This document shows positions 19,560 to 55,007 of a DNA stretch of 64,000 nt, in pieces. Position 1 is the stretch's first letter, and each line of letters begins with the position of its first letter. The DNA comes from Desulfovibrio psychrotolerans (GTDB lineage: Bacteria > Desulfobacterota > Desulfovibrionia > Desulfovibrionales > Desulfovibrionaceae). The position numbers and the translations under genes were made by a program. The stretch lies in the NCBI RefSeq assembly GCF_013340305.1, contig NZ_BLVP01000008.1, forward strand, positions 753,719 through 817,718, given 5' to 3'. The notes under the pieces were generated by a model. That model searched no databases. It was not told the origin of the DNA and saw only the letters and a list, made by a program, of their open reading frames with translations.

Positions 19560-20121
19560 CCGCGGGCGCGGTACGGGGCGTTTTCAGGCGTGGGGCATTG
19601 CGGGGGTGTGGACGCAGAAACGGCATGATACAGGCACAGGCCCGGAAAGGCCGGGGAATAATAACGGAGTAGGGGCAGGAACTGTGCTACCTGTGGGCAA
19701 GAAGGGGATTGCAGTCCCTGCGGGTCCCACGGCGAAAACCAAAGATGGAGCGTGAATTTGCTGCACTGCCGCGGCGGTAACGGACGGGGCGGAGGTTGGT
19801 CCCGGCATGCGGCAAAAAGCCATTTCCACAGGTTCTGCAAGGGAATACTGGACGGTGGCAAGTATCTTCTGATAGAAAGTATCACTCTGTGAGATAGTGA
19901 GTGTCCACTTGATTAACTGAGGCTTAACCGAACCTGAACAGAGTTTTAACTGGCCTAAGCTGGTCAGAACAGAGCCTGAAATACGGACCGTGATGATAAT
20001 GCGCTCATTGTGTATGGTTGTTCGTGATAGGATTCTCAGTCGGATATCGGGCAGTAGTCCGGTCCGCAGATGCAGTGGTATCTGTTCGGGCCTGCCTGCC
20101 CGAGCAACAACCATACACCAT

Positions 20122-21195
20122 ATGGCTGTATTGTTGGTTGCCTGCTGTCTCTTGGCTGTTTCCGGTTTGCACAGCGCCCGTGCGGCAGAGGATGATGCAC
20201 AGGCTGCAGTTGCTTCAGCAGGGACCATCGCGTATTTTGAGGCGGGGCCTTACTGGGAGTTTGAACTTCTGTATACGGAAGTGCTCGCCGCGCTGGAGCG
20301 CATGGGCGTGCGGGACAAGGTGCATCTGCCCCCGCATCTGCATAGCAGCCCCGGCTGGGGAGCAGACCCCGACGTGTATCTTGCGGAGGCTGAACGGCTC
20401 ATGGCAGACCCTTCGGTGGACGCCATCATAAGCATGGGAACGGAAGCCACCAAGGCTCTGCTGGCCAAGAATAACGGAAGAACCTCCATTGTGGCCATAG
20501 ACGTGGCGGACCCTGTGCGCGCAGGATTCATTGACCGGGATACAGGACTTGGTGCGCCCAACCTGATCATTCAGCATACGCCGGACAAATGGCACAGGGT
20601 TTTCGTATTGTTCCACGAGGCACTGCCCTTTTCCCGTCTGGGTATCATGTACAGCGATACGCCGGAAGGGCTCTGGTACTCTAACGTGCCAGAGGCGCGC
20701 GAAGTGGCACGCGAGCGAGGGTTCGAGCTTGTGGAATATGACCGTCTGGACAGGGAGGAAAGCCCGGAATCCTGTGCGGAAGGGGTGCGGAGCCTGATCA
20801 GTCAGGGAGTGGATGCTCTCTATATTTCTGCCCTCAACTGCTTTGACTGGACGCAGGCAAACCCGCAGCCCATGCTGGACAGCCTGCATGGCAAGGGCAT
20901 CCGCACCTTTGCGCGGGACGGAACCGTGCATGTGCGGCGCGGAGTGCTCATGGGGCTTTCCACGCTGGATTATGTGCCGCTGGCAGAATTTTACGCAGCC
21001 GGCATTGCCGAACTGCTGGGGCTGATGCCGGAAGGCTTTATGCCATCGGAATATCGGTACCGGCCCAAAATTACGTTGAATCTGGATACCGCAAGTGCGT
21101 TGAAGATTAATGTTCCTCTGGTGCTGCTTATTTCTGCTGACGAAATTTTCGATTCCAGCCTTGCGGCTGTCCGGAATGCAACGGTGTCACAGTAA
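20122..21195 (+). CDS. ABC-transporter-type periplasmic binding protein, uncharacterised COG2984/PF04392 family (paralog 1). Start uncertain (19990 or 20122).
   Basis: Signal-peptide-like MAVLLVACCLLAVSGLHSARA. Conserved blocks shared with the 33039-34136 paralog (IGYFEAGPYW..., GMGTEATKALLA, LGI(M/L)Y(S/N)D(T/S)PEGR, ALNCFDW, PTFARDG, ITLNLDTA). No adjacent permease or ATPase. Confidence 0.6.
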   Translation: MAVLLVACCLLAVSGLHSARAAEDDAQAAVASAGTIAYFEAGPYWEFELLYTEVLAALERMGVRDKVHLPPHLHSSPGWGADPDVYLAEAERLMADPSVDAIISMGTEATKALLAKNNGRTSIVAIDVADPVRAGFIDRDTGLGAPNLIIQHTPDKWHRVFVLFHEALPFSRLGIMYSDTPEGLWYSNVPEAREVARERGFELVEYDRLDREESPESCAEGVRSLISQGVDALYISALNCFDWTQANPQPMLDSLHGKGIRTFARDGTVHVRRGVLMGLSTLDYVPLAEFYAAGIAELLGLMPEGFMPSEYRYRPKITLNLDTASALKINVPLVLLISADEIFDSSLAAVRNATVSQ

Positions 21196-21242
21196 GCGGG
21201 TCGCAAGACCGAAACGTGCAACTAAACTAAAGGGGCTTTGAA

Positions 21243-21854
21243 ATGGCGAAGAAGAATCCCGATGTGGCAAACGAAGCGGCGGAACAGACCGTAGCTGGTG
21301 AACCGATGGAGAACGCCGCCGAGGAAACGGCCAGGGTTCTGCCCTGCGAGCACGAAGTGGATGGCATTATCCGCAAGCGTGTTTATGCGGCTGTGGGACT
21401 GGGTTTTGTTCCCGTGCCGCTGGTTGATCTGGCCGGTCTTACCGCCATTCAGCTGGAAATGGTCTATGCCCTTTCCAAGGCGTATGGCGTGGAGTTCAAG
21501 AAAGAACGCGTCAAATCCATCATTTCTTCCCTGTGCGGCAGCGTTGCCACCGTGGCGGCAGTGCCCATGCTCGCTTCCCTGTTCAAGTGCATTCCGGTTA
21601 TCGGCACCACGGCCGGTGCGGCTACCCTGAGCATTACGGGCGGTGCCACCACCTATGCACTGGGTTGGGTGTTCGACCGGCATTTCAAGAAGGGCGGCAA
21701 TCTGGTCAATTTTGATACCGCGGAAGCCAAGTCCTATTTCAAGACCAAAATGGAAGAAGGCAAGGCTCTGGTATCCAAGATGAATCCCAAGAAGAAGGAT
21801 GAATCAGCCGAGGCGGCCGCACCGGCAGCGGACGAAGCGCAGTCTCCGGCATAA
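21243..21854 (+). CDS. Hypothetical protein, DUF697-like (membrane-associated, Lys-rich acidic tail)
   Basis: 203 aa. Central hydrophobic block (VGLGFVPVPLVDLAGLTAIQLEMVYALSKAYG...IGTTAGAATLSITGGATTYALGWVF) resembles the DUF697/YcjF-type family. Family assignment is from memory only. Confidence 0.3.
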   Translation: MAKKNPDVANEAAEQTVAGEPMENAAEETARVLPCEHEVDGIIRKRVYAAVGLGFVPVPLVDLAGLTAIQLEMVYALSKAYGVEFKKERVKSIISSLCGSVATVAAVPMLASLFKCIPVIGTTAGAATLSITGGATTYALGWVFDRHFKKGGNLVNFDTAEAKSYFKTKMEEGKALVSKMNPKKKDESAEAAAPAADEAQSPA

Positions 21855-21855
21855 G

Positions 21856-21915
21856 CATGTTCCTGTAGGGCGTGTTCCTGTGGGATGCGTTCCTGTAGGG
21901 TGTGCCACTGTAGAG
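21856..21915 (+). repeat. Four tandem ~15-bp direct repeats (nnnGTTCCTGTAGGG) immediately after the DUF697-like gene stop, upstream of the NRPS
   Basis: GTTCCTGTAGGG at 21859. GTTCCTGTGGG at 21874. GTTCCTGTAGGG at 21889. Degenerate CCACTGTAGAG at ~21904. 15-bp period. Confidence 0.7.
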
Positions 21916-22055
21916 CGCGGTCGTGTTCAATGTCAGCACGTGTTCGCTCAGCGAGTGCGCGGTCGGGGCTTCGGGACCTGGGCGACCGACCATGCTTTGT
22001 GCACAGTGTGGGGCTTGGGCTGTCCATGAAATCAGCGTGGTATACACGTAAGGTA

Positions 22056-22093
22056 GCATGGACTGAGCATGGCCCGGGCATGGACGAGCATGG
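22056..22093 (+). promoter_or_regulatory. Four helically phased GCATGG direct repeats (spacing 11, 11, 10 bp), candidate transcription-factor operator about 360-390 bp upstream of the NRPS start
   Basis: GCATGG at 22056, 22067, 22078, 22088. Inverse CCATG at 22024. Non-coding region. Confidence 0.5.
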
Positions 22094-22449
22094 AGTGAAA
22101 GGAAGCGCCTTGCCGTGCGGCTGTTAGCCGTTGCGGTACCTGCCGTCCTCTGACGCTTTGCCGTGGCAGAAGGGGCATAGTGCCTCCCTGCGTCAAGGCT
22201 GTGCGCCAGTACAGGTGCCTGCTTATCTGAGCCGAACAGGGCTTTATGTACCGCAGGGGTACCGGCGGGCAGCCGTTTGTTATTGCCTGTTCGTCCGGTG
22301 CTGCGGGGGCTGTGGTTGTCCCGTATCGAACCCTGCGTATGCCGGAGAGATATTGCATCACTCTCCGGTTCATACCGATGGGTGTGGCATGCGGGATTGC
22401 CATCTCCAATGGTATTCACGTGGAATTCAGGGCAGGAATCGGAATCCGA

Positions 22450-25400
22450 ATGACGCAGAACCGATCGTTGCCGCTCCCCCCTGAACAGAAGGCGGAGCCT
22501 GCCGCCGTGCTGGCGGATGATACCGGTGCTGACTGCAGAGATGCGGACAGCGCGCCCCTTACGCCGGAAGAACGGGCGCAACTCAACGTATGGGAGTACG
22601 GTCCTGTAAGGCCCGTGCCTCATGGCGGCATTCCTGCGCTCTTTGCCCGTCAGGTGCGCATGGCTCCCCACGCTCCCGCTCTGCTGGTTGACGGGGCGTT
22701 GCTCTCCTATGCGGAACTGGATGCAGCGTCCAATCGTGTTGCGCACGCGCTGCTGCATATTCTGGGCGGTGTGAACGGAAACGGCATTCAACCAGCGCCA
22801 GCCGTGCACGCCCTGCACGTGTCATCTCACTCCGCAAACGACAATGGCAACGGCAACGGCAACGGCACGGGGAGCACAATCTCTTCCGGACCGATGAACA
22901 CGCCGGAAAGTGCCGACATGGCGGAACTGGCAGTGCCAGACCGTGTTGTGGGGGTGCTTACGGGCAGGAATCCCCATCTGGCGGTGGTGGCTCTGGGGAT
23001 ATGGAAGGCCGGTGCCGTGTATCTGCCGCTGGATGCCTCGCTGCCTGCCCCGCGATTGCGCAGAATGATGGAAGATGCACGCGTGCGCGTGCTGTTTGAT
23101 GCGCGCACCGATGCAGACCTTCGCGCCCGCCCTGTGCCCGATTGCCTGTTGCCGGACCCGGAAAAGTCAACCCCGGAGTTCAGCTGTGCCCATCTGAATA
23201 TGGACGCAGCGTTACTCTGCCCGGACCATGCGGTGCATCGCGCGGCAGATTCCGCCGCATGCGCCTACATCATCTTCACTTCCGGTTCTACGGGCATCCC
23301 CAAGGGGGTTGCCGTCTCCCACGGGGCGTTTGTCAACATGATCTGCGGGCAGATTGCCGTGCTGGGCATAACCCCCGCAGACCGCCTGCTGGCCTTCGCA
23401 CTGCCTTCGTTCGATGCCTCGCTTTCCGAAATGTTCATGGCGCTGGGGGCGGGAGCCAGCCTGTACCCTGTCTCGCGCGATATTATTGGGGATACCGAAT
23501 CTTTTTCAGCCTTTGTAGACTCCCACGGCCTTACCGGAGCCACATTGCCCCCGGCCTACCTGCGTTTGTTCCAGCGGCGTGATTTTCCCACCCTGCGGTT
23601 CCTGCTTACGGCAGGAGAAGCGCCTGTCCGGGAAGATGCGCTGCATTACGCCGCCCGTCTTGCGTATTACAATGCCTACGGCCCCACGGAGAACGCCGTG
23701 TGCGCGACAATGACGCGTATCATTCCGCACGGTTCTGGCATGGAGAATGAGAACAGCGGGAGCATTGGGAGCAACGGGAGCGGTCGAAACGGCGGGAGCG
23801 GGGGCGCAGAAGGAGAAACCTGCGCCGGACGGGTGCCCCTGCCCATGGGAAAGCCGTTGCCTAACATGGGAACGCACGTACTGGGGCCGGACCTTGCGCC
23901 TGTGCCGCCCGGACAGCCGGGAGAGCTTTGCCTCAGCGGGCGCAGTCTCGCCATGGGCTATGTGAACAGGCCGGACCTGAACGCAGCCAGTTTTATTCTG
24001 TGCCCGGCCTTGCAGAACCGGCGTATATACAGGACGGGCGATCTGGTCCGCTGGAATGCCGCAGGTGAACTGGAATATCTGGGGCGTATAGGCAGGGAAG
24101 TGAAGGTGCGCGGTTTCCGCATCGACCCCGGCGAGGTGGAATGCGCGCTGGATGAATTGCCCGATGTGCTGCAATGCGCCGTGGCAGCCCATCGCCTGCC
24201 GGATGATATGGGCGGGAGCACTGCCCTGCACGGCTTTTTGGTTATGCGGGGAGAAAAGGCGCTGCCTTCGCCTGTGATGCTGCGGGAGTGGCTGCTGCGC
24301 ACGCTGCCTGACTATATGGTTCCTTCAGGGTGGACGCAGTTGCACAGGCTGCCGCTCAACCGTTCCGGCAAGATTGATTATGCCGCACTGGCTGCACAGG
24401 CGGCTGCCACAGGTGTTGATTGTTCAGTCCCGAGCGACTTCTCCAGCCAGGCTGCCCCGGCGCAGAAACCGGAAGCTGCGGCTCACAAGAGCGAAATCCC
24501 CGGGCAGCCCGCAGCGGAGAGGACCACGCCTGAAATGCCAACGGGGCGTGTGCTGCCCATGTCCTTCTCGCAGCGGCAGTACTGGATACTGCATCAGTCG
24601 GAAGCTTCCGCAGCCAGCAGCAACATGTCCTTTGTTGTCGAATTTTCCTGTACACCCGGAGCGGAACAGGCTCTTGAAGAGCGTCTGCGCGCCGCCTTCG
24701 GTGCGATTATGGACCGGCATGAGAGCCTGCGCACCTCGTTCAGCATGGTGGACGGCGCTCCCATGCAGATTATTCATCCGCACATTCCCTTTACGCCCGA
24801 CCTGCGCGATCTGAGCGACAGCCTGACACCGGATGAGGATGCGCAGGACCTGTGCGTGGAGTTGCTGCAAACCCCGCTGGACATAACCCAGCCACCGCCG
24901 TTGCGCGGGCTGCTCATCCGGCTTTCCGGCCGGGTGTGGCTTGCGGTGAGCCTGCATCATATTGTGGGTGACGGGCAGTCCGTGGGCATAGTCGGGCATG
25001 AATTGCTGGCCTGCATGGAAGGGCGCGCATTGCCTGCCGTAGAGGGGCAGTATCAGGATTTTGTCCATGCGGAGCAGCAGTATCTGGCTTCTCCGGTCAT
25101 GCAGACAGACCGCAGGTACTGGCTGGACGTATTGTCGCAGGGGCAGCCGCGGGCCGATATAGCCACCGAGTATGAACGCCCGGCTTTTCGCAGGGGGCGG
25201 GGCGAGATTTGTCGGGTGGCTCTTTCCGGAACGCAGGTGGCGGATTTCTGCAGGCGCGATTCCCTGCCCGGTTCGCTGTTCATGCGCATTGTCGCCTGTG
25301 TGGCCATGCTGCTGCGCAGCCGTGCGGACGGGGACACCATAACCATGGGCATTCCTGTTTCGGTGCGGCATAAAGGGTCTTTCGGGCAGGTTGTGGGCAA

Positions 25401-28400
25401 CTTCATTGTGCCGCAGCCTTTGGTGGTGCCTGTCAGGGCGCAGGAGGGGTTTGCCACCGTGCTCAATTCGTCCATACAGGCTGTGGCTGGAGCCATGGAA
25501 CACTGCATGTATCCGCCCGTGCGGCTGTACGGCGATTTGGACGTTGTGCGCGACCCGGCGCGGGGGGCGTTGTTCGATGTCATGATTACCACGCCCCAGC
25601 TTTCCCTGACTGTGCCCGTACAGGGCAATGTGCATGGCTATGAAGATGATGAAGGAATGGCTTCGCCGGACAGTCGCCCTGACAGCCAGTCGGACAGTCG
25701 CCCTGACAGCCAGCCGGACAGTCAACCGGACAGCCAGCCGGACAGCCAGCCGGACAGCCAGCCGGATACTCTGCCGCAGGATATGCCGGAAAAATTGGCG
25801 GACGATCCGCGGGGCGAAATGTCCTTGTCCTTGGGCAAGGGCAGGTTTATTTCACTCTATTCCGGCCTTGCCAGATTCGACCTGACATTCGTGACCGCCA
25901 TCTTGCCGGATGGCGGCCTGATGCTGGTGCTTGAGTACGACTCCGACCTCTACAGCCGCTCGACGGCAAAAGCCATGCTGGAATCGTTGCGGGCCATGAT
26001 TGTTGAGGGTGCATACGGGCAGCCTGTGCTGAACGGAGAAAACGCTTCCGATGCACTTTCTGCCGGAGCAGGGGAGGCGGATGCTTGCAATGCCTCCGGT
26101 CAGGCATCAGCCGCCGCATCCTCGGCTGGCACGGAAGAGCTGCGCCGCACTATGCTGGCTGTGTGGCGCACGGCTTTGGGTAGGCCGGAACTGCACGAAC
26201 GGGATAACTTTTTTACCGCCGGCGGCGACTCCATAAAAGCCATCAGCCTGTGCGGGGAGCTGCGCAAGCACGGCATTCCCCTTTCTCCCGCCCAGCTCTT
26301 CCGCTTCCCGACAGTGGCAGAGGCGGCAGAAGCATGTCGCGCAGCAGAGGCAACGCCGGAAGCCCTGCCAGACGCATGGCCGGTTCCGGTGAGCCCCGTG
26401 GCCCATATCTTCATCCCCGAACAGACGGATTTTCTGCGCAAGTTTGTGCAATCTCTCATGGTGGAAGTACGGCGCGATGAGGACCCCGCGGACGAGGACA
26501 GGCTGGAAACGGCCTTCCGGGCCGTGGTGCGGCATCATCCGGCGTTCCGGTACAGGCTGCGGCTGCATGACGGGGCGGCGTTTGAACTGCTGGGCAGTCC
26601 CCGCGTTTACTGGAAGCGGATAGCCTGCGCCGATGCGGACGTGGCGGAAACAGCCCTGCGGGAGGGCAGATCCATCCGTGAGTGGATAGACCCATGCAAG
26701 GGCTACAACGTGGGCGCCTGCCTGTTCAGTACCCCGCAGGCGGTTCTGCTGCTCGTGGTAAGCGCGCATACCAGTGTGGATATGGTGTCGTGGCGTGTAC
26801 TCAGCGATGATCTGGAAACGGCGTACCGGCGCGGCCCCGGGGCGCTTGTGTCCGGTGCTGCCGGATTTGACCAGTGGCTGCGCGCTCTGTACAGGCATGC
26901 GGAATCCGGTGCAACGGAGGGGGAACTGGAATTCTGGCGGAACATGGTGTCCGGCAGGATTGCACGGCTTCCCCTTGTCGTGGCGCAGGACGAGCAGTGG
27001 ACTATGCAGGAGGCACAAGTGTCCCCGGATGTGGTGGACCGGCTGGAAGCCCTTGCGGTGGGTAACGGTCTGGACATGCGGTCCATCCTGCTGGCCACCC
27101 TTGCGCGCAGCCTTGTCCCTGTGCTGGAAGGCGACGCGGTGCTGCTCACCTTTGAAGGCCACGGGCGGCAGGTTTCTTACTCCACGCTGGATGTGATCCG
27201 CACGGTGGGCTGGTTTACGGCGGCGTATCCCTTCCGGCTGCCGCTGGATGCGCATTCTCCGCTATCGGCTCTTGCCGGGAACCTGCTGCAACACATGCGG
27301 CAGGTGCCGGATGGCGGCACAGGCTTCTGCGTGTTGTGCCATGCCCTGAAGCGTCTTGAAAAACCGGCGGCAAGTTTCAGTTTCAACTATCACGGAAGAC
27401 AAACCGTCGAGCGCCGAGACGGGTTCGGGCTGTCCGGACACAATCCGGACCTGCTCACAGACATGGTATCCACCCGGCATTCCGATCCGGTGAACCTGTC
27501 GCTGGTTATTCTGGAAGGAACGCTGCACATCGTGGCGCAGTTCCCCGGCGGACTGCTGGATGCGGACTGGGTGCGCGCGATGCTGGACCGCTGGAGAGCG
27601 AATCTTGGCGAGATGGCCCGCTCTGCGCCTGCATCCGGTGCCTTTCCGGTTCATGCGGCAGGGCAGAACGTATTTCCCGTGCTTCCCTTGCAGGCGGCAT
27701 TGGTGGAAAGCCTGAACGAGTCGGGTCAAGCGACTGCAAGAGAGACGGCTGCCGGAACCGTTCAGATCTCCTTCCGCCTGCGCGGCAACCGGTGCGCGGC
27801 AATGCTGCCCGATGTCTGGCGGCAGGTGGTGCAGCGGCATGAATTTTTGAGAGCAGTCTTTGTGCAGAAGGGGGAAGGCAGCGTTAAGCAGCGCCTGATG
27901 CCCGAAGCTGCGCACGCGGTGACCGTGTCCGATGGTCTGGGTCTGGAGCCGGAGGTGCAGGATGCGGAATTGCAGGCGCTGCTCGGGTTTGAGCGGAAGC
28001 GCCCCTTCCTTCCGTCCGGCCCGCTCATGCGTGTTCTGTTCATGCGGCATGGCGATGATTGCTGCACCATGGCATGGACATTCCCCCGTCTGCTTCTGGA
28101 CGACCGGAGCGTGGGTATTCTGCTGCACGACCTGTGCGCACTTTACCATGCCCGTTTGCACAACGAGTCAGCAGTGCTGCCGTGTACGGTGAGTCTTGCC
28201 GGGGCGTTGTCGGGTCTGCCGTTGCAGAACGAGGATGATACGCAGGCATTCTGGCGCCGATATCTTGCCGGGACGCAGGGCTATGTGCCGCTGCTGCCTC
28301 GCAATGGCGAAATGGCCGACGCTGTTGCCGTTGCCGGGGAGACAAAAGAGTTCACGGCGGAACTGTTGCAAGTGGAAATCACCGCCCTGCGTGCGCTGGC

Positions 28401-29040
28401 CGCCCGATGCGGAGTTTCGGCAGAAGCACTGCTTTGCGCCGCATGGGGCCTGTTCCTTTCTGCCGGCTCCGGTCGCGCGGATGTACTTTTCGCCTCCATG
28501 ACCACGGCGTTGCCGCAGACGCAGCAGGCAGCGACGCAGACCGTGGGCATGTTCGGGCAGCCACTGCCCCTGCGGCTGCGGGTGCTGCCGCATTCCACCA
28601 TCTCTGCCTTGGCGGAATCTGTGGCGCAGGATATGGAGGACCGTTCGCCCGTTGCCCACATGCCGCTGCCCGCCGATGCGTGGGGAGACCTTGCTGTCAG
28701 CTCCGGGCCGGATCATCTGGTGCACTTTGGTGCGCCCCCGTTTCTTGGCGTTTCCGGCGGGTTGCGGCTGGAATCCGTGCGGATGCACGCCGGGGTGCCG
28801 CACGGCCTGTGCCTTTGGGCAGAGACGGACGGTATCGTGCGGTTCCGGTTCCGGTATGATTCGTCCGCCCATGCCCGGAAACAAGTGGAACGGATTGCGG
28901 AACATTGGCTCGGGCTGTTGCGCAGCGTCATAGAATTGCCGGAGTGCCCCGTAGCGGAAATGGGGCTTTTGGTGCCGGATGCTGCCCTGTGGGCGGCAAC
29001 GGCAGCAGGACGGCAGGCCTGCGTTCCGCAGGAACCGTGA
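22450..29040 (+). CDS. Non-ribosomal peptide synthetase, single adenylation domain, non-canonical architecture A - C - T(PCP) - E-like - terminal degenerate C
   Basis: A-domain core motifs: A3 IIFTSGSTGIPKGV, A5 YNAYGPTENAVC, A6 GELCLSGRSLAMGY, A7 YRTGDLVRW, A8 GRIGREVKVRGFRIDPGEVE, A10 NRSGKID. C domain with intact HHIVGDGQS. PCP (FFTAGGDSIKAISL). Domain with E-type signature (AHTSVDMVSWRVL). Terminal C-like domain whose HHxxxDG is replaced by PRLLLDD. Start chosen at the ATG at 22450 (MTQNRS); the ORF is open from 22246. Confidence 0.85.
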   Translation: MTQNRSLPLPPEQKAEPAAVLADDTGADCRDADSAPLTPEERAQLNVWEYGPVRPVPHGGIPALFARQVRMAPHAPALLVDGALLSYAELDAASNRVAHALLHILGGVNGNGIQPAPAVHALHVSSHSANDNGNGNGNGTGSTISSGPMNTPESADMAELAVPDRVVGVLTGRNPHLAVVALGIWKAGAVYLPLDASLPAPRLRRMMEDARVRVLFDARTDADLRARPVPDCLLPDPEKSTPEFSCAHLNMDAALLCPDHAVHRAADSAACAYIIFTSGSTGIPKGVAVSHGAFVNMICGQIAVLGITPADRLLAFALPSFDASLSEMFMALGAGASLYPVSRDIIGDTESFSAFVDSHGLTGATLPPAYLRLFQRRDFPTLRFLLTAGEAPVREDALHYAARLAYYNAYGPTENAVCATMTRIIPHGSGMENENSGSIGSNGSGRNGGSGGAEGETCAGRVPLPMGKPLPNMGTHVLGPDLAPVPPGQPGELCLSGRSLAMGYVNRPDLNAASFILCPALQNRRIYRTGDLVRWNAAGELEYLGRIGREVKVRGFRIDPGEVECALDELPDVLQCAVAAHRLPDDMGGSTALHGFLVMRGEKALPSPVMLREWLLRTLPDYMVPSGWTQLHRLPLNRSGKIDYAALAAQAAATGVDCSVPSDFSSQAAPAQKPEAAAHKSEIPGQPAAERTTPEMPTGRVLPMSFSQRQYWILHQSEASAASSNMSFVVEFSCTPGAEQALEERLRAAFGAIMDRHESLRTSFSMVDGAPMQIIHPHIPFTPDLRDLSDSLTPDEDAQDLCVELLQTPLDITQPPPLRGLLIRLSGRVWLAVSLHHIVGDGQSVGIVGHELLACMEGRALPAVEGQYQDFVHAEQQYLASPVMQTDRRYWLDVLSQGQPRADIATEYERPAFRRGRGEICRVALSGTQVADFCRRDSLPGSLFMRIVACVAMLLRSRADGDTITMGIPVSVRHKGSFGQVVGNFIVPQPLVVPVRAQEGFATVLNSSIQAVAGAMEHCMYPPVRLYGDLDVVRDPARGALFDVMITTPQLSLTVPVQGNVHGYEDDEGMASPDSRPDSQSDSRPDSQPDSQPDSQPDSQPDSQPDTLPQDMPEKLADDPRGEMSLSLGKGRFISLYSGLARFDLTFVTAILPDGGLMLVLEYDSDLYSRSTAKAMLESLRAMIVEGAYGQPVLNGENASDALSAGAGEADACNASGQASAAASSAGTEELRRTMLAVWRTALGRPELHERDNFFTAGGDSIKAISLCGELRKHGIPLSPAQLFRFPTVAEAAEACRAAEATPEALPDAWPVPVSPVAHIFIPEQTDFLRKFVQSLMVEVRRDEDPADEDRLETAFRAVVRHHPAFRYRLRLHDGAAFELLGSPRVYWKRIACADADVAETALREGRSIREWIDPCKGYNVGACLFSTPQAVLLLVVSAHTSVDMVSWRVLSDDLETAYRRGPGALVSGAAGFDQWLRALYRHAESGATEGELEFWRNMVSGRIARLPLVVAQDEQWTMQEAQVSPDVVDRLEALAVGNGLDMRSILLATLARSLVPVLEGDAVLLTFEGHGRQVSYSTLDVIRTVGWFTAAYPFRLPLDAHSPLSALAGNLLQHMRQVPDGGTGFCVLCHALKRLEKPAASFSFNYHGRQTVERRDGFGLSGHNPDLLTDMVSTRHSDPVNLSLVILEGTLHIVAQFPGGLLDADWVRAMLDRWRANLGEMARSAPASGAFPVHAAGQNVFPVLPLQAALVESLNESGQATARETAAGTVQISFRLRGNRCAAMLPDVWRQVVQRHEFLRAVFVQKGEGSVKQRLMPEAAHAVTVSDGLGLEPEVQDAELQALLGFERKRPFLPSGPLMRVLFMRHGDDCCTMAWTFPRLLLDDRSVGILLHDLCALYHARLHNESAVLPCTVSLAGALSGLPLQNEDDTQAFWRRYLAGTQGYVPLLPRNGEMADAVAVAGETKEFTAELLQVEITALRALAARCGVSAEALLCAAWGLFLSAGSGRADVLFASMTTALPQTQQAATQTVGMFGQPLPLRLRVLPHSTISALAESVAQDMEDRSPVAHMPLPADAWGDLAVSSGPDHLVHFGAPPFLGVSGGLRLESVRMHAGVPHGLCLWAETDGIVRFRFRYDSSAHARKQVERIAEHWLGLLRSVIELPECPVAEMGLLVPDAALWAATAAGRQACVPQEP
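25667..25775 (+). repeat. In-frame 12-bp tandem repeat (CCGGACAGCCAG x ~9) encoding (PDSQ/PDSR)n inside the NRPS C domain
   Basis: Protein segment PDSRPDSQSDSRPDSQPDSQPDSQPDSQPDSQPDT. Near-perfect nucleotide repeats visible directly. Confidence 0.85.
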
Positions 29041-29206
29041 TTTTGGTAACATGGCGGACTTTTGTGCAAATCGGCACTCCGCCAGTTGTATTTTACAGCA
29101 AGGAAGGGCACTATCACTCCTTCGTGGAGCGTGCCGGTCTTTCTGCCCGGGTGCCGGGGTTTCCGGCCATGAACATTGCAATCGCGACTTCCGGTAACGG
29201 GGGCTG

Positions 29207-30898
29207 TTGGGACTCATGCTGCAACTGAAACAATCGTATTTTCTCACGCTGCTCCGCGATAACGCCGGTGCGGAAGGGCGGCGGCTCGTGGGTGCCTGCC
29301 TTGGCGCGGGTATCATGCAGGGGCTTTGCGTCTTTACCGTGCTGCAGGGGCTGGAGCAGCTTTCTTCCGATGAGGGCATAAAGTTCCACACCTTTGCGGC
29401 ATTTCTTCTGTGCCTCGGGCTGTTCTATTATCTTTTCCGCTACATAACCGGGCAATCGGCCCTCATAGCCCTGCGCGGCGTTATGGAATGGCGCATGCGC
29501 ATTGCCACCAAGCTGCGCGGCATATCGCTGCTGGAATATGCGCGGCTGGACAGGGGGCAGGTGCAGTCCGTGCTGCTGGACGGGCGCGAGATGGTGGTGG
29601 AAGCGGCGCGTATGCTCATGGCCTCCGCAGCCAACTCCGTGATGATCCTGGTGGCTATTTGCAAGATGTTCACGGTTTCGTTTGTGGGCACTGTGGGCGT
29701 GCTGCTGCTTATGGGGCTGGGGCTTGGCATCTTTCTGCGGCTGGTGGGCAGCGTGCAGGCACTTATGGAGCCTGCGCGCAGGGCAGATCTGGAGTTTTCA
29801 TCCGGTCTGCGCGACCTGCATGACGGCCTGTTGCAACTGAAGCTGCACAAGCCCAAGACCACAGACCTGTTCAGCGGGCAGATTCTGCAGGGACTCAATA
29901 AAGCCTCCGTGGCCCGTGAGGCCATGGAACGCAGGCATGCCCTAGGCATTTCCTTCTTTGCCATGTTCAACCTGCTCATTCTGGGGCTTATCCTGTTCCT
30001 CATGCCGGGGTTTCTGGGGCTGGATGCCGAATCCACCTCCACTCTGCTGGTGCTCACCATGTTCTGTCTCAGTCCTCTGCTCAGTCTGGTGGGTTTTGTG
30101 CCGCTGATGGGCAAGGTGGAAATGAGCCTGCACGAACTCACGGACATGGAGCGCCATCTGGATGCGGTGACCGAACCCTTTGAACGGGAAGGCGTGGCTG
30201 CTAGCTGGCAGCACCCGGACCCCAAGGTACCCGCTTTTGAATCGCTTCTCCTGCGCGATGTGCGGTTTGAGTATGTGGACAGGCACGGGGCGCGCCAGTT
30301 CGGGGTGCATGTGCCCGAGTTTTCCCTGCAGCGTGGTGAGATGGTCTTCATCCGCGGGGGCAACGGTTCGGGAAAATCCACCTTCATGAACGTGCTGGCA
30401 GGGCTGTATCAGCCCCAGTCCGGCGAGTTCATCTTGAACGGCATGCCTGTGGAAGACGTGGGCATGGAGTCTTACCGCAACCTTTTTGCCGTGCTGCCTG
30501 CGGACTTCCATCTTTTCAGCCGTCCGCTGGGAGTGGATGCCTCCGCCCGCCGTACGCAAAAAATGCTGGAAAAGATGCGCTTGGATACCAAGGTGCGCAT
30601 CACCGAGGATGGTACTTTTTCCACGCTGGATTTGTCCGCCGGGCAGCGCAAACGGCTTGCCCTTGTATGCGCCATGCTTGAGGACAGGGATGTATACCTG
30701 CTGGACGAGGTTGCGGCGGACTTTGATCCGGAATTCAGGCGTTTCTTCTATGAGGAATTTTTGCCGGAACTGCGCGGGCAGGGCGCGACCATTCTCGCCA
30801 TCTCCCATGATGACCGCTTCTTCCATGTGGCGGACAGGGTGCTGTGCATGCGCGATGGAACCTTTGCGGAGAACGGGCAGCAGGAGGGATCGGCATGA
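29207..30898 (+). CDS. Cyclic-peptide-type ABC exporter, fused permease plus ATPase (SyrD/cyclic peptide transporter family)
   Basis: 563 aa. N-terminal 6-TM domain. C-terminal NBD (Walker A GGNGSGKST, signature LSAGQRKRLAL, Walker B VYLLDEVAADFD). Positioned directly after the NRPS. Confidence 0.8.
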   Translation: MGLMLQLKQSYFLTLLRDNAGAEGRRLVGACLGAGIMQGLCVFTVLQGLEQLSSDEGIKFHTFAAFLLCLGLFYYLFRYITGQSALIALRGVMEWRMRIATKLRGISLLEYARLDRGQVQSVLLDGREMVVEAARMLMASAANSVMILVAICKMFTVSFVGTVGVLLLMGLGLGIFLRLVGSVQALMEPARRADLEFSSGLRDLHDGLLQLKLHKPKTTDLFSGQILQGLNKASVAREAMERRHALGISFFAMFNLLILGLILFLMPGFLGLDAESTSTLLVLTMFCLSPLLSLVGFVPLMGKVEMSLHELTDMERHLDAVTEPFEREGVAASWQHPDPKVPAFESLLLRDVRFEYVDRHGARQFGVHVPEFSLQRGEMVFIRGGNGSGKSTFMNVLAGLYQPQSGEFILNGMPVEDVGMESYRNLFAVLPADFHLFSRPLGVDASARRTQKMLEKMRLDTKVRITEDGTFSTLDLSAGQRKRLALVCAMLEDRDVYLLDEVAADFDPEFRRFFYEEFLPELRGQGATILAISHDDRFFHVADRVLCMRDGTFAENGQQEGSA

Positions 30899-31395
30899 GA
30901 GGGGTAATTCTCTGCTACGCCGTGCTGGCCAGCTTTCTGACCATCTGTCTGGTCTGCTTTCTGGCGGTTGCGCCTGCTCAGGCGCGCAAGCTGGAACAGC
31001 GTACCAGTATTCAGGAAGTGCGCGAACTGTATGAAAATGTGAACAAAACGCGTGCCTCGGAAGTCAACGCACGGGAAAACGATGCCATTATCCGCCAGCG
31101 GCTGGAATGCTATGCGGAGTATGCCGACTACACCCCCCGTCTGCGTGTCTGCAATAATGCCTATGTAAAAGAACTGGTCAGCCAGGCACGGGATAAGGTG
31201 CGCTCGCGCCCCGATCTCGGGTGGTTTGTGGTAAATATCAACCTGTGCCCCGTCATGTACAACCTGTGCACGGGGCAGACGCAGAATGACAGGGAGCGTT
31301 GCATCCTCTTTGAGCGTCAGTGCGTGGATTATACGCTGGACAGATTCTGGCGCGGCGCGGCTCAGTACACCCATCAACAATATCGGTCCGAGTGA
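30895..31395 (+). CDS. Small secreted cysteine-rich hypothetical protein (signal peptide, 6 Cys)
   Basis: Start ATG overlaps the ABC exporter stop (ATGA). Signal peptide MRGVILCYAVLASFLTICLVCFLAVAPAQA. Mature ~136 aa with 6 Cys (ECYAEY, RVCNN, NLCPV, NLCTG, ERCIL, RQCVD). Confidence 0.5.
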   Translation: MRGVILCYAVLASFLTICLVCFLAVAPAQARKLEQRTSIQEVRELYENVNKTRASEVNARENDAIIRQRLECYAEYADYTPRLRVCNNAYVKELVSQARDKVRSRPDLGWFVVNINLCPVMYNLCTGQTQNDRERCILFERQCVDYTLDRFWRGAAQYTHQQYRSE

Positions 31396-32603
31396 TGATG
31401 AAAACGCTGTATATCAAGATACGCAATCTGCTGAGGCGGTACCGGATGTTCCTCGTATCCACGGGACTGCTCTTCGTGCTGTTTTTTGTCTTCTTCTGGC
31501 CGGATATCATCATAAGCATCCGGCCGGGTGAACTGGGTGTGTACTACTCCCGCCTGTTCGGCGGAACCAGAATGGACAGGACGTACGAGGAAGGGGTGCA
31601 CTTCATTCCTCCGTGGGACATCCTTTATGTGTATGACGTGCGCATTCAGGAAGAAACGCAGGAAGTGGAAGTGCTCACGCTGGACGGTCTGACGGTCAAG
31701 GTCCATGTTTCGCTGCGTTATCAGATCATCCGCGACAGACTGCCCGTTCTGCATCAGCAGATCGGACCGGAGTATAAGCGCAAGGTCATTCTTCCCATCA
31801 TGACATCGGCGGTACGCCAGACCATAGGCAGCTACAGGCCCGATGCGCTGTATTCCACGGCGCGGCAGGAACTGCAGGATAAAATGCTCGTGGATGCGGT
31901 GGAAGAACTGGGCCGCCTGCCCCTCATCGTGCATGGGTTTGTGGTGAAGAAAATCAGCCTGCCGGAAGTGCTCAGAGACGCCATTGTGGACAAGCTGGTG
32001 GCCGAACAGAAGTATCTGCGCTATTACTATATCCTGCTCGAAGAACGGGAAGAGGCAAAGCGCAAGGCCATAGAAGGGCAGGGTATCCGTTTCTACCAAT
32101 CGCTGGTCAACGAAAACATGACCGAGAACTACCTGCGCTATGAAGGCATTAAGGCAACGCATAAGCTTGCCGCGTCAGAGAACGCCAAGGTGGTGGTCGT
32201 GGGAAGCGGCAAGGATGGTTTGCCCATTATCCTGAATACGCAGGATACGCCGCGGATTCCGGATATGACGAACGCAACCCGCGAGGCGAGGGAGCGGCAG
32301 GATAAATTCGGGCGCAGACAGGCAACCCCGGCGGCATCGGAAAGCAACTCCACCGCAGCTGACTCGGCAGCGGGCAATGCATCCGCAAGAGGTGTTGTAG
32401 GAGGCGGTTCCGCACCCAACATGCGCGAAGAAGGCGGATGGAAGCAGTGGCAACTGCGCGAGCCGGAATTGCTTGAGTTTATGAAAAAACTGGATGCCAC
32501 ACTGCTGAACCCGAACAGGCAGGCGCCCGGTGCGTCCGGTTCGCCCGGTGCGTACGGTTCACAGGGTGACGAGAATGGCAATAAGGGGCAAGGCAGGCGA
32601 TAG
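31395..32603 (+). CDS. SPFH/band-7 (prohibitin/stomatin/HflC-like) membrane protein
   Basis: Start overlaps the previous stop (TGATG). N-terminal TM (FLVSTGLLFVLFFVFFW). SPFH core (VYYSRLFGG...EGVHFIPPWDILYVYDVRIQE...LTLDGLTVKVHVSLRYQI). Coiled-coil. Gly/Ala-rich tail. Confidence 0.75.
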   Translation: MMKTLYIKIRNLLRRYRMFLVSTGLLFVLFFVFFWPDIIISIRPGELGVYYSRLFGGTRMDRTYEEGVHFIPPWDILYVYDVRIQEETQEVEVLTLDGLTVKVHVSLRYQIIRDRLPVLHQQIGPEYKRKVILPIMTSAVRQTIGSYRPDALYSTARQELQDKMLVDAVEELGRLPLIVHGFVVKKISLPEVLRDAIVDKLVAEQKYLRYYYILLEEREEAKRKAIEGQGIRFYQSLVNENMTENYLRYEGIKATHKLAASENAKVVVVGSGKDGLPIILNTQDTPRIPDMTNATREARERQDKFGRRQATPAASESNSTAADSAAGNASARGVVGGGSAPNMREEGGWKQWQLREPELLEFMKKLDATLLNPNRQAPGASGSPGAYGSQGDENGNKGQGRR

Positions 32604-32717
32604 CCGCCTGTGCAGGGGGGCCTTTTCCGCAGACTGATCAGGCGTGACAGTGCGGAGCGGGCACAGGTGTTCGCCGAGTTTATGCCGTGGCCGGACCAAA
32701 CGCAACGGAGTGAGATC

Positions 32718-32999
32718 ATGGTTGTATTACTCTTTTTCCTTGTTGGAAGCATCATTGTCGGGTTTCTGGGAAGGTACTGCCGGTTCGGTTTCTGGGGGCA
32801 TTTCTTTGCCAGCGTGTTGCTTACGCCCGTGGTAGGTCTGCTGCTGGTGCTTGCGGCTGGACCGGGGTGCCGTGATCGGCGCGATGCCCATGCCACTTCT
32901 TCCCGGACCGGCTCGACAGACGGAACCCGGGCCGGAACCCGGGCCGGAACCGGAGCCGAAACTGAAGCCGGAGCGGGCACCGCAGGCGGCAATGTCTGA
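32718..32999 (+). CDS. Small 2-TM membrane protein with low-complexity Thr/Gly/Ala-rich tail (possible NfeD-like partner of the SPFH protein)
   Basis: GGAGTGAG RBS 6 nt upstream of the ATG at 32718. Sequence MVVLLFFLVGSIIVGFLGRY...VLLTPVVGLLLVLAAG. Tail encoded by a 12-bp tandem DNA repeat at ~32915-32955. Confidence 0.45.
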   Translation: MVVLLFFLVGSIIVGFLGRYCRFGFWGHFFASVLLTPVVGLLLVLAAGPGCRDRRDAHATSSRTGSTDGTRAGTRAGTGAETEAGAGTAGGNV

Positions 33000-33038
33000 G
33001 CGTGAAATACCGTTTTTCATTTGTCATCCGGGGTACGC

Positions 33039-34136
33039 ATGCCGCCTCATCTGAACATTGCCCTCTCCAGCGTTGTGTTACGGCTATTGGGCTGCCTCCT
33101 CATGCTGGGTGCACTGGCAGCCGCGTCCCCCGTCAAGGCGTCAGAAGCCGGGACGGGCGGAGAAAAAATCAGGCGCATCGGCTATCTGGAAGCCGGACAT
33201 TTCTGGCTGTTTGAACGCACCTTTCAGGCTTTCCGCGATGCCTTGCAGGAGCGCGGAATCCGTGCGGATTTTCCCGCAGACGCCCGGTTCAGCCCCGGAT
33301 GGGAGCCTGAAAACATGGCCCGCCTGCCGCAGGCTGCTGCGGCACTGATGCAACGGGATGACCTTGATCTTGTTGTAGGCATGGGAACGGCAGCCATGAA
33401 GGCCCTGCTGGCGGCCAATACCGGACAGACCCCGATCATGGGTATGGGCATGGCAGACCCCGTTGCGGCGGGCGTGGTGGCGGGGCCGGAAGATTCCGGT
33501 GCGGAGAATGTTACCTGCCATATCGTTGCAGACCGCTGGTCCACCATGTTCAGGGTATTCCACGACGTGGTGGGCTTCCGTACTCTGGGTATTCTGTATA
33601 ACGACAGCCCGGAAGGCCGGGTTTATGCCGCTCTGGATGACGCCCGCGCCGTGGCTTCGGAGCTGGGATTCGGCATTGCCGAATATGGCGGGCTTTCCTC
33701 TGCGGAAACAGAAGCGGAATGCCGTGCGGGGCTGGATGCCCTGCGGGCGCAGGGCATGGATGCCTTTTTCATTGGCCCGCTGAACTGTTTCGACTGGCAG
33801 ACCAGCAACGTGGCATCGCTGCTGGAACTGCTGAACGGCTGGAACATTCCTACCTTTGCCCGCGATGGATCAGATTTTGTGCGGGCAGGGGCACTTATGG
33901 GCTTTTCCACATGGAATTTCGGTCCGTCAGGCACTTTTCTGGCGCGGCAGGCGGCGGCAGTCTTCAATGGCACCTCCCCCCGCGCCATTCCCATGCTGGA
34001 CAGGGTGGAGCCGACCATTGCCATTAATCTGGAAACCGCCGGACGCATCGGGTTTATCTTCCCTCTGGACGTGCTGGTGGTTTCCGATGAAATCCACGAG
34101 CGGATAACACTGCCTGCCGCAGGAAAGGAGCAGTAG
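33039..34136 (+). CDS. ABC-transporter-type periplasmic binding protein, COG2984/PF04392 family (paralog 2)
   Basis: Signal peptide (MPPHLNIALSSVVLRLLGCLLMLGALAAASPVKA). Shares the same conserved blocks as the 20122-21195 paralog. 3-bp gap before the sensor-MFS fusion gene. Confidence 0.65.
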   Translation: MPPHLNIALSSVVLRLLGCLLMLGALAAASPVKASEAGTGGEKIRRIGYLEAGHFWLFERTFQAFRDALQERGIRADFPADARFSPGWEPENMARLPQAAAALMQRDDLDLVVGMGTAAMKALLAANTGQTPIMGMGMADPVAAGVVAGPEDSGAENVTCHIVADRWSTMFRVFHDVVGFRTLGILYNDSPEGRVYAALDDARAVASELGFGIAEYGGLSSAETEAECRAGLDALRAQGMDAFFIGPLNCFDWQTSNVASLLELLNGWNIPTFARDGSDFVRAGALMGFSTWNFGPSGTFLARQAAAVFNGTSPRAIPMLDRVEPTIAINLETAGRIGFIFPLDVLVVSDEIHERITLPAAGKEQ

Positions 34137-34138
34137 CC

Positions 34139-36859: not shown

Positions 36860-37793
36860 GCAGGTCTTCCATCTCCGGCAGACAGGGGTCGTCCAGCCCC
36901 TGTGGCAGGTAGAGTGAGAGCAGTTGGCGGTAGTCGTCCATGTCTATGAGCCTGCCGCCGTTTTCAGCAAACTGCCTGAATTCTTCTTCTGTGGGGTAGC
37001 TGAAATACTGCTCCTGTGTCTTGTCCTGCGATGTGCCGGGCAGCCGTTCTTCCCGTTCCAGCACGGGCAGGTGGCGCAAAAACGCTTCTATGCCTGCAAA
37101 ATATGTCTGCACAAAATTCCAGAGCAGCGAACGGTCATACCGTATATCTGCCCAGCCCACGTCCACCACGTCGCCACTGTCTATGCCGGGGTCAATGTGG
37201 AAGACCGTGCAGCCTGAGCGGGCATGACGCATCTGCATGGCGCGAAAAGGGCCGCATAATCCCTGAATCTGAGGCAATACACCGGGGTGCATGCCATATA
37301 TGCCAAGGCGGGGAATGGAGATGATGTCTTCTCTGAAGATGAAGTCGTACCGGCAGGAGAGTATGACATCCGGGGCAAGGGCGCGCATGGCGGCGGCCGC
37401 TTCGGGCCTGCTGGCCCGGCCCCATAGTTCGACCGGAATGCCGAATTTTTTGGAAATTCCGGAAAATGTTTGGTATTCTGCAGTACTGCCTTCCGGGAAC
37501 CTGTCATCCAGATAGGGGTAAAACAGTTTCAGGGGCATATCCCGTTCATGATTGAGCAGGCATGCTGCCAGCAGGTTTGCCCGCTCCGCCTTGAGCACAT
37601 AGTCGGAGAGAACCACATGGACATTGTGGCGGGGAGCAAGCGCGCTCACAAGCCTGTTCAGAGCCAGATTTCCCGCAAGATCACGTTTGGTGCAGATGAC
37701 GATTTTCAAAGGGCCGCCATGGGGAGTCGTTGAAGCCTGAAAGGGGAACGCCGCGTCGGGGAGGGAAGATAGCACGGGCTGCGGCGGGAGCAC
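36840..37793 (-). CDS. Formyltransferase-family protein (PF00551-like; divergent, not canonical Fmt)
   Basis: 317 aa. Formyl-transferase catalytic region GIYGMHPGVLPQIQGLCGPFRAM (N-x-H-x-SLLP-type motif), aligned from memory to Fmt GCINVHGSLLPRWRGAAPI. Convergent with the MFS fusion gene and overlaps its 3' end by 20 bp. Confidence 0.5.
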   Translation of the reverse strand: MLPPQPVLSSLPDAAFPFQASTTPHGGPLKIVICTKRDLAGNLALNRLVSALAPRHNVHVVLSDYVLKAERANLLAACLLNHERDMPLKLFYPYLDDRFPEGSTAEYQTFSGISKKFGIPVELWGRASRPEAAAAMRALAPDVILSCRYDFIFREDIISIPRLGIYGMHPGVLPQIQGLCGPFRAMQMRHARSGCTVFHIDPGIDSGDVVDVGWADIRYDRSLLWNFVQTYFAGIEAFLRHLPVLEREERLPGTSQDKTQEQYFSYPTEEEFRQFAENGGRLIDMDDYRQLLSLYLPQGLDDPCLPEMEDLLNPSGC

Positions 37794-54027: not shown

Positions 54028-54136
54028 CGTTCTGGTATAGTGCGAGGTATGCGTTTCTGTTGTGGAGATAGAAAGTCGGTCTGCCGAAGAAAAGCGTTGA
54101 CATATCGGGTCTGAATATGAAAGTCATTATCAAACA

Positions 54137-54953: not shown

Positions 54954-55007
54954 AATCTTATTGACCATCAAGGAGTCAATGGTTCAAGTCCTAGGGTAGA
55001 TTCGAGC

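Follow-up and report, generated by a model that had tools for sequence, protein, structure and literature searches.

Gene and domain organization

A gene for a non-ribosomal peptide synthetase (NRPS) with an unusual domain order was analyzed in a 64,000-nucleotide (nt) stretch of the Desulfovibrio psychrotolerans genome (RefSeq assembly GCF_013340305.1, contig NZ_BLVP01000008.1, positions 753,719 to 817,718 of the forward strand). This whole stretch is called the window, and all positions refer to it. A preliminary description had ascribed the DNA to a Desulfovibrio-like host, which agrees with its source and with the exact matches of neighboring proteins to D. psychrotolerans entries (GFM37578, GFM37582, and others), and had placed the gene at 22450-29040 with a product of 2196 amino acids (aa). 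The open reading frame (ORF) on the + strand spans 22246..29040 without interruption, and the true gene was found to be 22450..29040 (2196 aa). Conservation among orthologs begins precisely at M69 of the long ORF (nt 22450), and farther 5' the ortholog DNA alignment shows insertions and deletions that are not multiples of three. Because conservation starts at M69 and the upstream indels break the frame, the start at 22450 and the length of 2196 aa are correct as first described, and a start at 22246 was ruled out.

Pfam searches with the whole protein and with six pieces of it gave the order AMP-binding/AMP-binding_C, Condensation, PP-binding, Condensation, and Condensation. In the 2196-aa numbering, the matches spanned aa 163-504 (AMP-binding), 562-641 (AMP-binding_C), from about 701 (first Condensation), about 1235-1296 (PP-binding), about 1333-1724 (Condensation), and about 1770-2073 and beyond (Condensation). 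E-values were 1e-120 for Condensation, 2e-60 to 8e-59 for AMP-binding, 8e-54 for the Condensation match of the first condensation domain, and 7e-14 for PP-binding; chance domain matches are excluded by the values of 1e-120 and 8e-59. The gene encodes an adenylation (A) domain, an LCL-type condensation (C) domain (C1), a thiolation or peptidyl carrier domain (T or PCP), an epimerization (E) domain, and a terminal DCL-derived domain (C*), i.e., A-LCL-T-E-DCL*. The order A-C-T-E-C* with a single carrier was thus borne out domain by domain, and the motifs reported in the preliminary description were all found at their positions, including FTSGSTG (aa276), NAYGPTE (aa408), YRTGD (aa527), GRIGREVK (aa545), and NRSGK (aa637) in the A domain, HHIVGDG (aa836, nt 24955) and GGDS (aa1258, nt 26221) downstream of it, and AHTSVD (aa1439, nt 26764) and PRLLLDD (aa1879, nt 28084) in the two further members of the C superfamily. 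The protein possesses the elements of a type I NRPS, namely an A domain with core motifs, a GGxS carrier, and a C domain with HHxxxDG, and its order departs from C-A-T, as in nonlinear (type C) NRPSs. A canonical C-A-T order, arising from a cryptic PCP or from a frameshift between two genes, had been named as the alternative; it was not found when domain hidden Markov models were applied.

The gene is preceded by a noncoding leader of about 600 bp (21855..22449, + strand), in which several blocks are conserved among three lineages and the last 35 nt, directly 5' of the ATG, are invariant. No Rfam family was found in the window, the leader included. No convincing sigma-70 promoter was found on the + strand of the leader, where the promoter/terminator scan remained at background level.

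Adenylation domain and predicted substrate

The A domain (aa 60-645; 22627..24384, + strand) was delimited by Pfam, TIGR01733, and alignment to 1AMU. Its TIGR01733 score was 331 bits (cut-off 317), the catalytic K641 was present, and the core motifs A1-A10 were readable, in agreement with the preliminary description except for one refinement in A8, whose hinge Asp is replaced by Gly. The A8 motif (aa 545-555, nt 24082-24114) reads GRIGREVKVRG, with Gly for the hinge Asp of GRxDxQVKIRG. This substitution is kept in all orthologs; the metagenomic relative P0002, introduced below, has GRRDNQIKVRG.

The pocket region aligned without gaps to GrsA PheA (1AMU residues 224-334). The specificity code, extracted programmatically, comprised D322, A323, S326, T365, L386, A388, A409, V417, C418, and K641 (DASTLAAVCK), which we take to be one substitution away from the tyrosine code DASTVAAVCK of the Stachelhaus table. 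The code DASTVAAVCK was also present in several of the retrieved NRPSs. The predicted substrate of the A domain is tyrosine or a similar aromatic amino acid.

First condensation domain and its junction with the A domain

The preliminary description had placed a C domain with an intact HHIVGDG straight after the A domain, and this was confirmed. C1 (aa 701-1190; 24550..26019, + strand) was recognized by Pfam, by its match to 2jgp, and by subtype profiles, and its catalytic motif is intact (HHIVGDG, aa 836-842, H836-H837, nt 24955-24975). By sequence, its best PDB match was the LCL-type PCP-C of TycC (2jgp, 9e-39), compared with 1e-12 for the starter C domain of CDA. Profiles for LCL, DCL, and E domains, trained on domains labelled purely by context in about 115 retrieved NRPSs, gave C1 279, 70, and 57 bits, respectively. 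Assignment of C1 as a starter C domain was not supported, given its internal position and its LCL type within a profile set consisting of LCL, DCL, and E. C1 also carries a strain-variable, hypervariable loop insertion of about 70 aa.

The A-C linker (aa 646-700; 24385..24549, + strand) is of low complexity, has no Pfam match, and showed a dN/dS of 0.55. No carrier domain was detected by Pfam between A and C, even at E<=1 (piece 24340-24660), no GGxS motif was present in the linker, and the first carrier of P0002 (T1), used as a probe, matched only the genuine T domain. Where a T domain intervenes, the distance from A10 to the His motif of the C domain has a median of 246 aa; in the window enzyme it is 199 aa, which leaves the linker about 50 aa shorter. 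A cryptic PCP at this junction was ruled out on these grounds.

Carrier and epimerization domains

The entire protein contains just one carrier (aa 1233-1300; 26146..26349, + strand; PP-binding 7e-14), lying after C1 as previously proposed. It has the GGDSI form, and the predicted phosphopantetheine attachment site is Ser1261 (nt 26230-26232). The following domain, earlier read as epimerase-type, proved to be a true E domain (aa 1310-1735; 26377..27654, + strand) according to PDB matches, profile, and motifs. Its top PDB matches were all E domains (TycB, BacC, GrsA, PvdL, and TycA), the profile scores were 212 bits for E, 59 for LCL, and 0 for DCL, and TIGR01720 was matched in part. Of the HH motif, its second His is retained (A-H1440-TSVDMVSW), as is FEGHGRQ at aa 1568-1574.

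Terminal domain

C* (aa 1745-2170; 27682..28959, + strand) was characterized by PDB matches, profiles, and a structural model. As the preliminary description had stated, it carries PRLLLDD (nt 28084-28104) in place of HHxxxDG; the orthologs have PRLLLDD or, in sister lineages, PRLFLEE. In the context-defined DCL references, xHHxxxDG was retained without exception (26/26). C* scored 181 bits with the DCL profile and 126 with LCL, whereas the intact third C domains of P0002 and P0047, the second metagenomic relative, scored 333 and 353 with DCL. Its PDB sequence matches were C domains that follow an E domain or take a D-configured donor (BacC 498-793, McyB, TycB1, and SrfA-C). A single-sequence AlphaFold model was unusable (pLDDT 37), and an alignment-based model was used instead (pLDDT 71, pTM 0.70); this model superposed on the condensation domain of SrfA-C with a TM-score of 0.85 and an rmsd of 2.7-2.8 Å. 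Sequence and structure place C* with the DCL class, but the catalytic motif of that class is absent, and the protein ends after C* with no acceptor module following. As judged from the model, C* is a DCL-derived, folded domain without the catalytic His motif.

C* was also compared with the X domain of glycopeptide NRPSs, which has HRxxxDD as a degenerate His motif and a non-catalytic role (PMC11546977). C* resembles it in its place near the C-terminus and in its degenerate xRxxxDD motif. The assignment was rejected: the sequence match to 4tx2 was weak (1e-4), the X domain ranked 45th in the structural comparison, and C* is closest to DCL in both sequence and model. Further, no genes for P450 (Oxy) partners were found in the 64-kb window, and the host is a strict anaerobe.

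Orthologs, selection, and tandem repeats

A scan of 185,579 species-representative genomes returned one relative, a metagenome-assembled genome of an uncultured Desulfovibrio (82% identity). Intact syntenic orthologs with about 84% identity were found on one JGI contig and three Logan contigs. In an exhaustive search with C* against 1.84 billion representatives, the ortholog cluster was the sole close match, all others showing <=31% identity. When the entire window protein or P0002 served as query, giant multi-modular NRPSs dominated the matches, which were ranked by summed score, and the search for homologs of whole P0002 returned nothing useful.

The ORF was intact in all sampled orthologs (loci L001/L003, L004, L005, and L006). 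Between the window and L001, dN/dS was 0.17 for A, 0.27 for C1, 0.10 for T, which was the most constrained domain, 0.16 for E, and 0.36 for C*; it was 0.5-0.8 for the linkers, about 0.95 for the C-terminal tail, and 0.04-0.08 for the neighboring genes. In neutral simulations at a dS of 0.36 or half that value, 27-45 stop codons arose in the gene and 5-10 in C*, and the ORF was still open in 0/500 replicates. Since dN/dS is low and no neutral ORF stayed open, the gene, including C1 and C*, appears to be kept by selection. The possibility raised beforehand, a pseudogene disrupted in close relatives, was ruled out by the intact orthologs, the dN/dS of 0.10-0.36 across the domains, and the outcome of the 500 simulations.

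The low-complexity insertions mentioned in the preliminary description were also real and were traced to tandem repeats at the DNA level. (AACGGC)x5.2 at 22837-22867 encodes (NG)n in the A domain, and DNA repeat analysis revealed a 12-nt unit repeated 8.5 times (25665..25766, + strand), which encodes (PDSQ)n in the loop of C1. The (PDSQ)n repeat is strain-specific, and the site is occupied in sister lineages by unrelated sequence of about the same length. These inserts are slippage-type repeats located in loops and vary between lineages.

Larger relatives and origin of the domain order

To our knowledge, the A-C-T-E-C architecture is rare and has not been described as such. The best-scoring relatives in every domain were P0002 and P0047 (29-46% identity). 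Their domain order, established with the window domains as probes and by eye, was C-A-T-C-T-E-C-A-T. The code of the first A domain was DASTLAAVCK in P0002, identical to that of the window enzyme, and DASTIAAVCK in P0047 (one residue off), and these A domains showed 44-46% identity to the window A domain. In both proteins, the second C domain leads straight to a T domain without an A domain and is followed by E and C, and the block from the end of this C through T-E-C aligned to the window enzyme as a single collinear segment of 1094 aa. The third C domain is intact in both (FHHILMDGW). C1 matches the second C domain of the relatives in position, not their N-terminal C.

The window gene most likely derives from the nine-domain type, without its N-terminal C, T1, and final A-T and with the stranded DCL domain decayed; the direction of evolution would accordingly be one of domain loss, as suggested by the sequence comparison. 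With tblastn, no remnants were detected of an upstream starter C, of T1 within the linker, or of a downstream A-T. The reverse direction, accretion from a five-domain to a nine-domain form, is formally possible, but it would not account for a C-terminal DCL-type domain devoid of the His motif. Because the second module of the relatives has no A domain of its own, service of a carrier beyond a C domain by the preceding A domain appears to be ancestral in the family. An A-C-PCP order has a precedent in VibF (PMC5577590), and modules without an A domain that are loaded by other A domains, as well as dissociated NRPS systems, are known (PMC7539972). The comparison points to an enzyme derived by reduction from a larger synthetase that can be identified, and not to a new assembly principle; the new or unexplained assembly logic suggested in the preliminary description did not hold, as the relatives already possess the C-T-E-C block without an A domain. 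In addition, C1 has kept HHxxxDG over about 70% divergence from P0002 while C* has lost its motif, which argues that C1 is still catalytic.

Two further loci were compared with each other. L014 (JGI 3300048576) and L008 are syntenic except for a 3101-aa P0047-type NRPS and an ABC exporter, present in one and absent from the other, and share genes for a sulfate transporter, DUF697, Band_7, a phosphopantetheinyl transferase (PPTase), a substrate-binding protein (SBP), a hydrolase, a ketoreductase (KR), a C-A-T-TE protein with a thioesterase (TE), and a polyketide synthase (PKS). L014, an L008-like locus with NRPS/PKS genes, lacks the P0047-type gene. This difference shows that gain or loss of the P0047-type NRPS gene occurs as a unit.

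Membrane and export cassette

The NRPS gene lies within a cassette of genes for membrane and export proteins. The order is SBP-like, DUF697, NRPS, ABC exporter, a 166-aa protein, Band_7, a two-transmembrane (two-TM) protein, SBP, a 906-aa fusion with a major facilitator superfamily (MFS) transporter, and a formyltransferase-like gene on the opposite strand. Proteins of the cassette are homologous to those encoded beside P0002 and P0047 (33-50% identity). Upstream of the leader, on the + strand, lies a gene for a DUF697/YcjF-family membrane protein (21243..21854; Pfam; 50% identity to the L008 copy). The following genes are encoded on the + strand downstream of the NRPS gene: an ABC exporter with fused transmembrane and nucleotide-binding domains, assigned to TIGR01194 "cyclic peptide export" (29207..30898; 33% identity to the L007 copy) with a score of 286.9 bits against a cut-off of 286.2; a 166-aa secreted Cys-rich protein of no known family (30895..31395; 34% identity to the copy of a relative); a Band_7/SPFH membrane protein (31395..32603; Pfam; 45% identity to the L007 copy); a small protein with two predicted TM segments (32610..32999; 45% identity to a 60-aa ORF of L007); and an ABC_sub_bind-family SBP (33021..34136; 46% identity to the L008 copy).

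The cassette forms a conserved Desulfovibrionales locus, spanning 19990-37793 in the window and also present in L012, L013, L008, L007, and L014. The DUF697 gene adjoins the ABC exporter in L012, L013, and L008. L012, from Desulfoplanes formicivorans, has the cassette without biosynthetic genes; L013, a Desulfomicrobium-like contig, has it together with a PKS-NRPS hybrid, PPTase, and TE. The L013 megasynthase was rejected as a relative, being an unrelated hybrid. DUF697 was likewise rejected as an NRPS-specific marker, since it is widespread in Desulfovibrionales and the Desulfoplanes cassette has no NRPS; a metagenome scan with DUF697 returned three loci, none informative. From these comparisons, the cassette appears to be a conserved membrane/export platform that is often, not always, paired with NRPS/PKS genes, and among the compared loci the window carries its smallest biosynthetic partner. 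The earlier statement that NRPSs are uncommon in Desulfovibrionaceae is weakened, as the same locus carries NRPS/PKS genes in other Desulfovibrionales.

The C-terminal half of the 906-aa protein (34139-36859) is an MFS transporter, and its N-terminal portion of about 470 aa contains several TM-like segments and gave no Pfam or NCBIfam match. Homologs of 800-890 aa occupy the equivalent cassette position in other Desulfovibrionales.

Within 22001-30000, the G+C content of the NRPS gene (0.615-0.632) exceeds that of the cassette genes on either side of it (0.57-0.58) by 4-5 percentage points. A parallel contrast was observed in L007 (10001-25000), where the related synthetase has 0.636-0.65 and its surroundings 0.55-0.57. 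The biosynthetic genes and the cassette may be of different origin, as far as base composition indicates.

Proposed function

The A, T, C1, and E domains keep their catalytic residues and are under constraint, and C* is folded and has no catalytic His. We give about an even chance to the reading that the protein is a functional reduced NRPS making a small product that contains a D-aromatic amino acid; within it, loading across C1, the donor's identity, the mode of release, and the product are what we infer. The A domain would activate an aromatic amino acid, with tyrosine the best guess, and load the sole carrier (Ser1261) beyond C1. The A-less second module of the relatives already uses this path. 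The E domain would epimerize the carrier-bound residue, and C1 would form one amide bond between a donor provided in trans and the aminoacyl group on the carrier, which would serve as acceptor. A second molecule of the protein would be the preferred source of the donor, in the form of its loaded carrier, as across the protomers of dimeric VibF; this is the simplest choice, since the ancestral donor of C1 was a carrier loaded with Tyr by the same A domain. The self-donor step would yield an L/D-Tyr-Tyr-type dipeptidyl thioester. Release could occur by hydrolysis or diketopiperazine formation, followed by export through the adjoining cyclic-peptide-type ABC exporter cassette, with C* acting as scaffold only. 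The self-donor model specifically would claim about a quarter of the weight given to the functional reading as a whole. A stricter form, a self-sufficient homodimer in which one A domain and one carrier feed C1 from both sides to give an L,D-aromatic dipeptide or diketopiperazine, with C* as a dimerization or release scaffold, no TE or second module, and export by the cassette, seems rather unlikely to us. We know of no description of such a self-sufficient homodimeric assembly mode for bacterial NRPSs.

Several observations weigh against a functional reduced NRPS. No Sfp-type PPTase, TE, MbtH-like protein, second carrier, or other NRPS/PKS was found in the 64-kb window, and no release domain or catalyst was found in the locus. 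The relatives and the Desulfomicrobium-like locus carry PPTase and TE beside the cassette, and in the barnesin system a dedicated PPTase is indispensable (PMC13096860), while the window has none. All productive models suffer above all from the lack of a PPTase and of any release catalyst in the locus. Moreover, the nonsynonymous rate of the NRPS gene is 3-6x that of its neighbors, conservation of motifs among 84%-identical orthologs is weak evidence by itself, and the polarity of loss depends on only two relatives as distant as 29-46% identity. Finally, the cassette of Desulfoplanes has no adjoining NRPS, and the exporter need not be dedicated to the NRPS.

Alternatively, the protein could be a lipo-amino-acid synthase, in which a repurposed C1 takes an acyl-CoA or acyl carrier protein (ACP)-bound donor and acylates the (D-)tyrosine on the carrier, and N-acyl-D-Tyr is released and exported by the ABC exporter or a resistance-nodulation-division (RND) system. 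This would dispense with a second carrier, and an RND pair and the ABC exporter flank the NRPS gene. The relatives begin with a C domain in starter position, as expected of a lipopeptide-type family, and the characterized anaerobe metabolite barnesin A, from a Cs-A(Tyr)-T... enzyme with a cyclic-peptide transporter in its cluster, is an N-acyl-Tyr lipodipeptide (PMC13096860). C1, however, is of LCL and not starter type (279 bits with LCL; 9e-39 for TycC against 1e-12 for the CDA starter C), it corresponds in position to the second and not the N-terminal C of the relatives, and the locus has no acyl ligase or ACP, which leaves this reading unlikely. If partners encoded elsewhere in the genome, such as a donor module, a PPTase, and a TE, acted in trans, the enzyme would instead be part of a split assembly line. 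C1 depends on a donor that neither the gene itself nor its surroundings encode, the strong conservation of the carrier implies that a PPTase must exist somewhere, and dissociated NRPS systems are known (PMC7539972). On the other hand, nothing else NRPS-related occurs in the window or within ±10 kb around the orthologs, the downstream-facing C* is dead, arguing against a downstream partner, and the termini show no docking-domain-like conservation (dN/dS of about 0.95 in the C-terminal tail); we give this reading a rather low probability.

Two further readings assign C1 no catalytic role or deny the enzyme a product. A supplier of D-amino acids of the GrsA/TycA type, in which only A-T-E is catalytic, D-Tyr on the carrier is hydrolyzed or passed on, and C1 and C* are structural, would fit the gradient of constraint, strongest in A, T, and E (0.10-0.17) and weakest in C1 and C* (0.27-0.36), as well as the closeness of the A pocket and the E domain to their counterparts in TycA, GrsA, and TycB and the hypervariable insertion of about 70 aa in C1. 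It is nevertheless doubtful, since HHxxxDG of C1 remained perfect over the same history in which C* lost its motif, free D-amino acids are normally made far more cheaply by racemases, and no hydrolase is present. A non-productive relic, i.e., a collapsed cluster whose carrier is never activated and whose ORF is kept for a non-biosynthetic reason or is slowly decaying, would account for the lack of PPTase, TE, and partner modules where the relatives have them, for the degenerate C*, for the raised nonsynonymous rate, and for the slippage-type repeat expansions within the gene. We regard it as improbable in view of the intact ORF in every sampled lineage, the dN/dS values, far under 1 for each of the five domains and smallest for the carrier, the retention of catalytic residues in A, T, C1, and E, and the 27-45 stops predicted under neutral drift, with 0/500 simulated ORFs open.

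Comparison with known systems

P0002 and P0047 share with the window enzyme the A-domain code, the A-less C-T-E-C block, and the accessory cassette (DUF697, ABC, an ORF of about 160 aa, Band_7, a small ORF, and SBP). They differ in keeping the N-terminal C, a carrier after the first A, the intact HHxxxDG of the third C, and the final A-T, and their clusters contain PPTase, TE, and further NRPS(-PKS) megasynthases.

VibF of vibriobactin synthetase has the order Cy-Cy-A-C1-PCP-C2, with Cy denoting cyclization domains, and its domains act in trans between the protomers of a dimer (PMC5577590). Compared by architecture and not by sequence, VibF and the window enzyme share the succession of A, C, and carrier and the presence of one silent or structural C-type domain (PMC5577590). 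The silent domain of VibF follows A and its terminal C2 is active, whereas the window enzyme shows the reverse; VibF also has Cy domains and no E, and works with VibB, VibE, and VibH. Examined for a VibF-like organization, the window enzyme thus has the A-C-PCP order, but no inactive C after A, no upstream Cy, and no active terminal C.

The GGDSI form is typical of carriers that feed E domains. The window carrier shares this form with GrsA and TycA (A-T-E), and the A pocket is closest, without gaps, to PheA of TycA/GrsA, as is the E domain to those of TycB, GrsA, and TycA. The window enzyme differs from them in the LCL-type C between A and T, the dead DCL after E, and Ser instead of Trp at position 239 of the A domain, so that the code is of Tyr and not of Phe type. 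C-T(-E) units without their own A, loaded from elsewhere, occur in yersiniabactin HMWP2/HMWP1, viomycin, syringomycin, and the C-PCP protein Cal19 of WS9326A (PMC7539972, PMC11586506). The C-T-E unit of the window enzyme is likewise without its own A, its carrier presumably being served by an A domain elsewhere in the chain; known systems have a donor carrier and downstream modules, whereas the window enzyme keeps only the A-less unit and the A that would serve it.

The brn cluster for barnesin (Sulfurospirillum barnesii/Geovibrio) encodes BrnE (Cs-A(Tyr)-T-C-A(Arg)-T), the PKS-TE BrnF, through brnBCD a "cyclic peptide transporter", and the PPTase BrnI (PMC13096860). By description only, it resembles the window locus as an NRPS(-PKS) of an anaerobe with a Tyr-activating first A domain and a multi-gene transporter of the cyclic-peptide type. 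In gene content it resembles the clusters of the larger relatives, a likeness by description that serves as a lead only. BrnE has no E domain or A-less module, and genes for PKS, TE, and PPTase are missing from the window locus.

If active, the enzyme would indicate to what extent an NRPS can be cut down without losing its function, with a carrier loaded across a C domain and no donor or release domain in cis, a point of relevance to the engineering of NRPSs and to the way in which A-less modules are loaded. For annotation, a "single-module NRPS with strange order" from mining of biosynthetic gene clusters could be read as the reduction product of a larger synthetase. The cassette is of interest in itself as a putative export or handling system that pairs with varied NRPS/PKS content or with none. 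Unless a metabolite is identified, the enzyme's practical importance remains modest.

Other features of the window

A dip in G+C (0.49 vs about 0.60) was observed at 54001-56000, around an ORF of 213 aa with Sel1 repeats (54137-54778); this region may be a small acquired island. In addition, three adjacent genes of the futalosine-type menaquinone pathway were identified at 49537-52714, two encoding radical-SAM CofH/MqnC-like proteins and one a protein of the MqnA/MqnD family.

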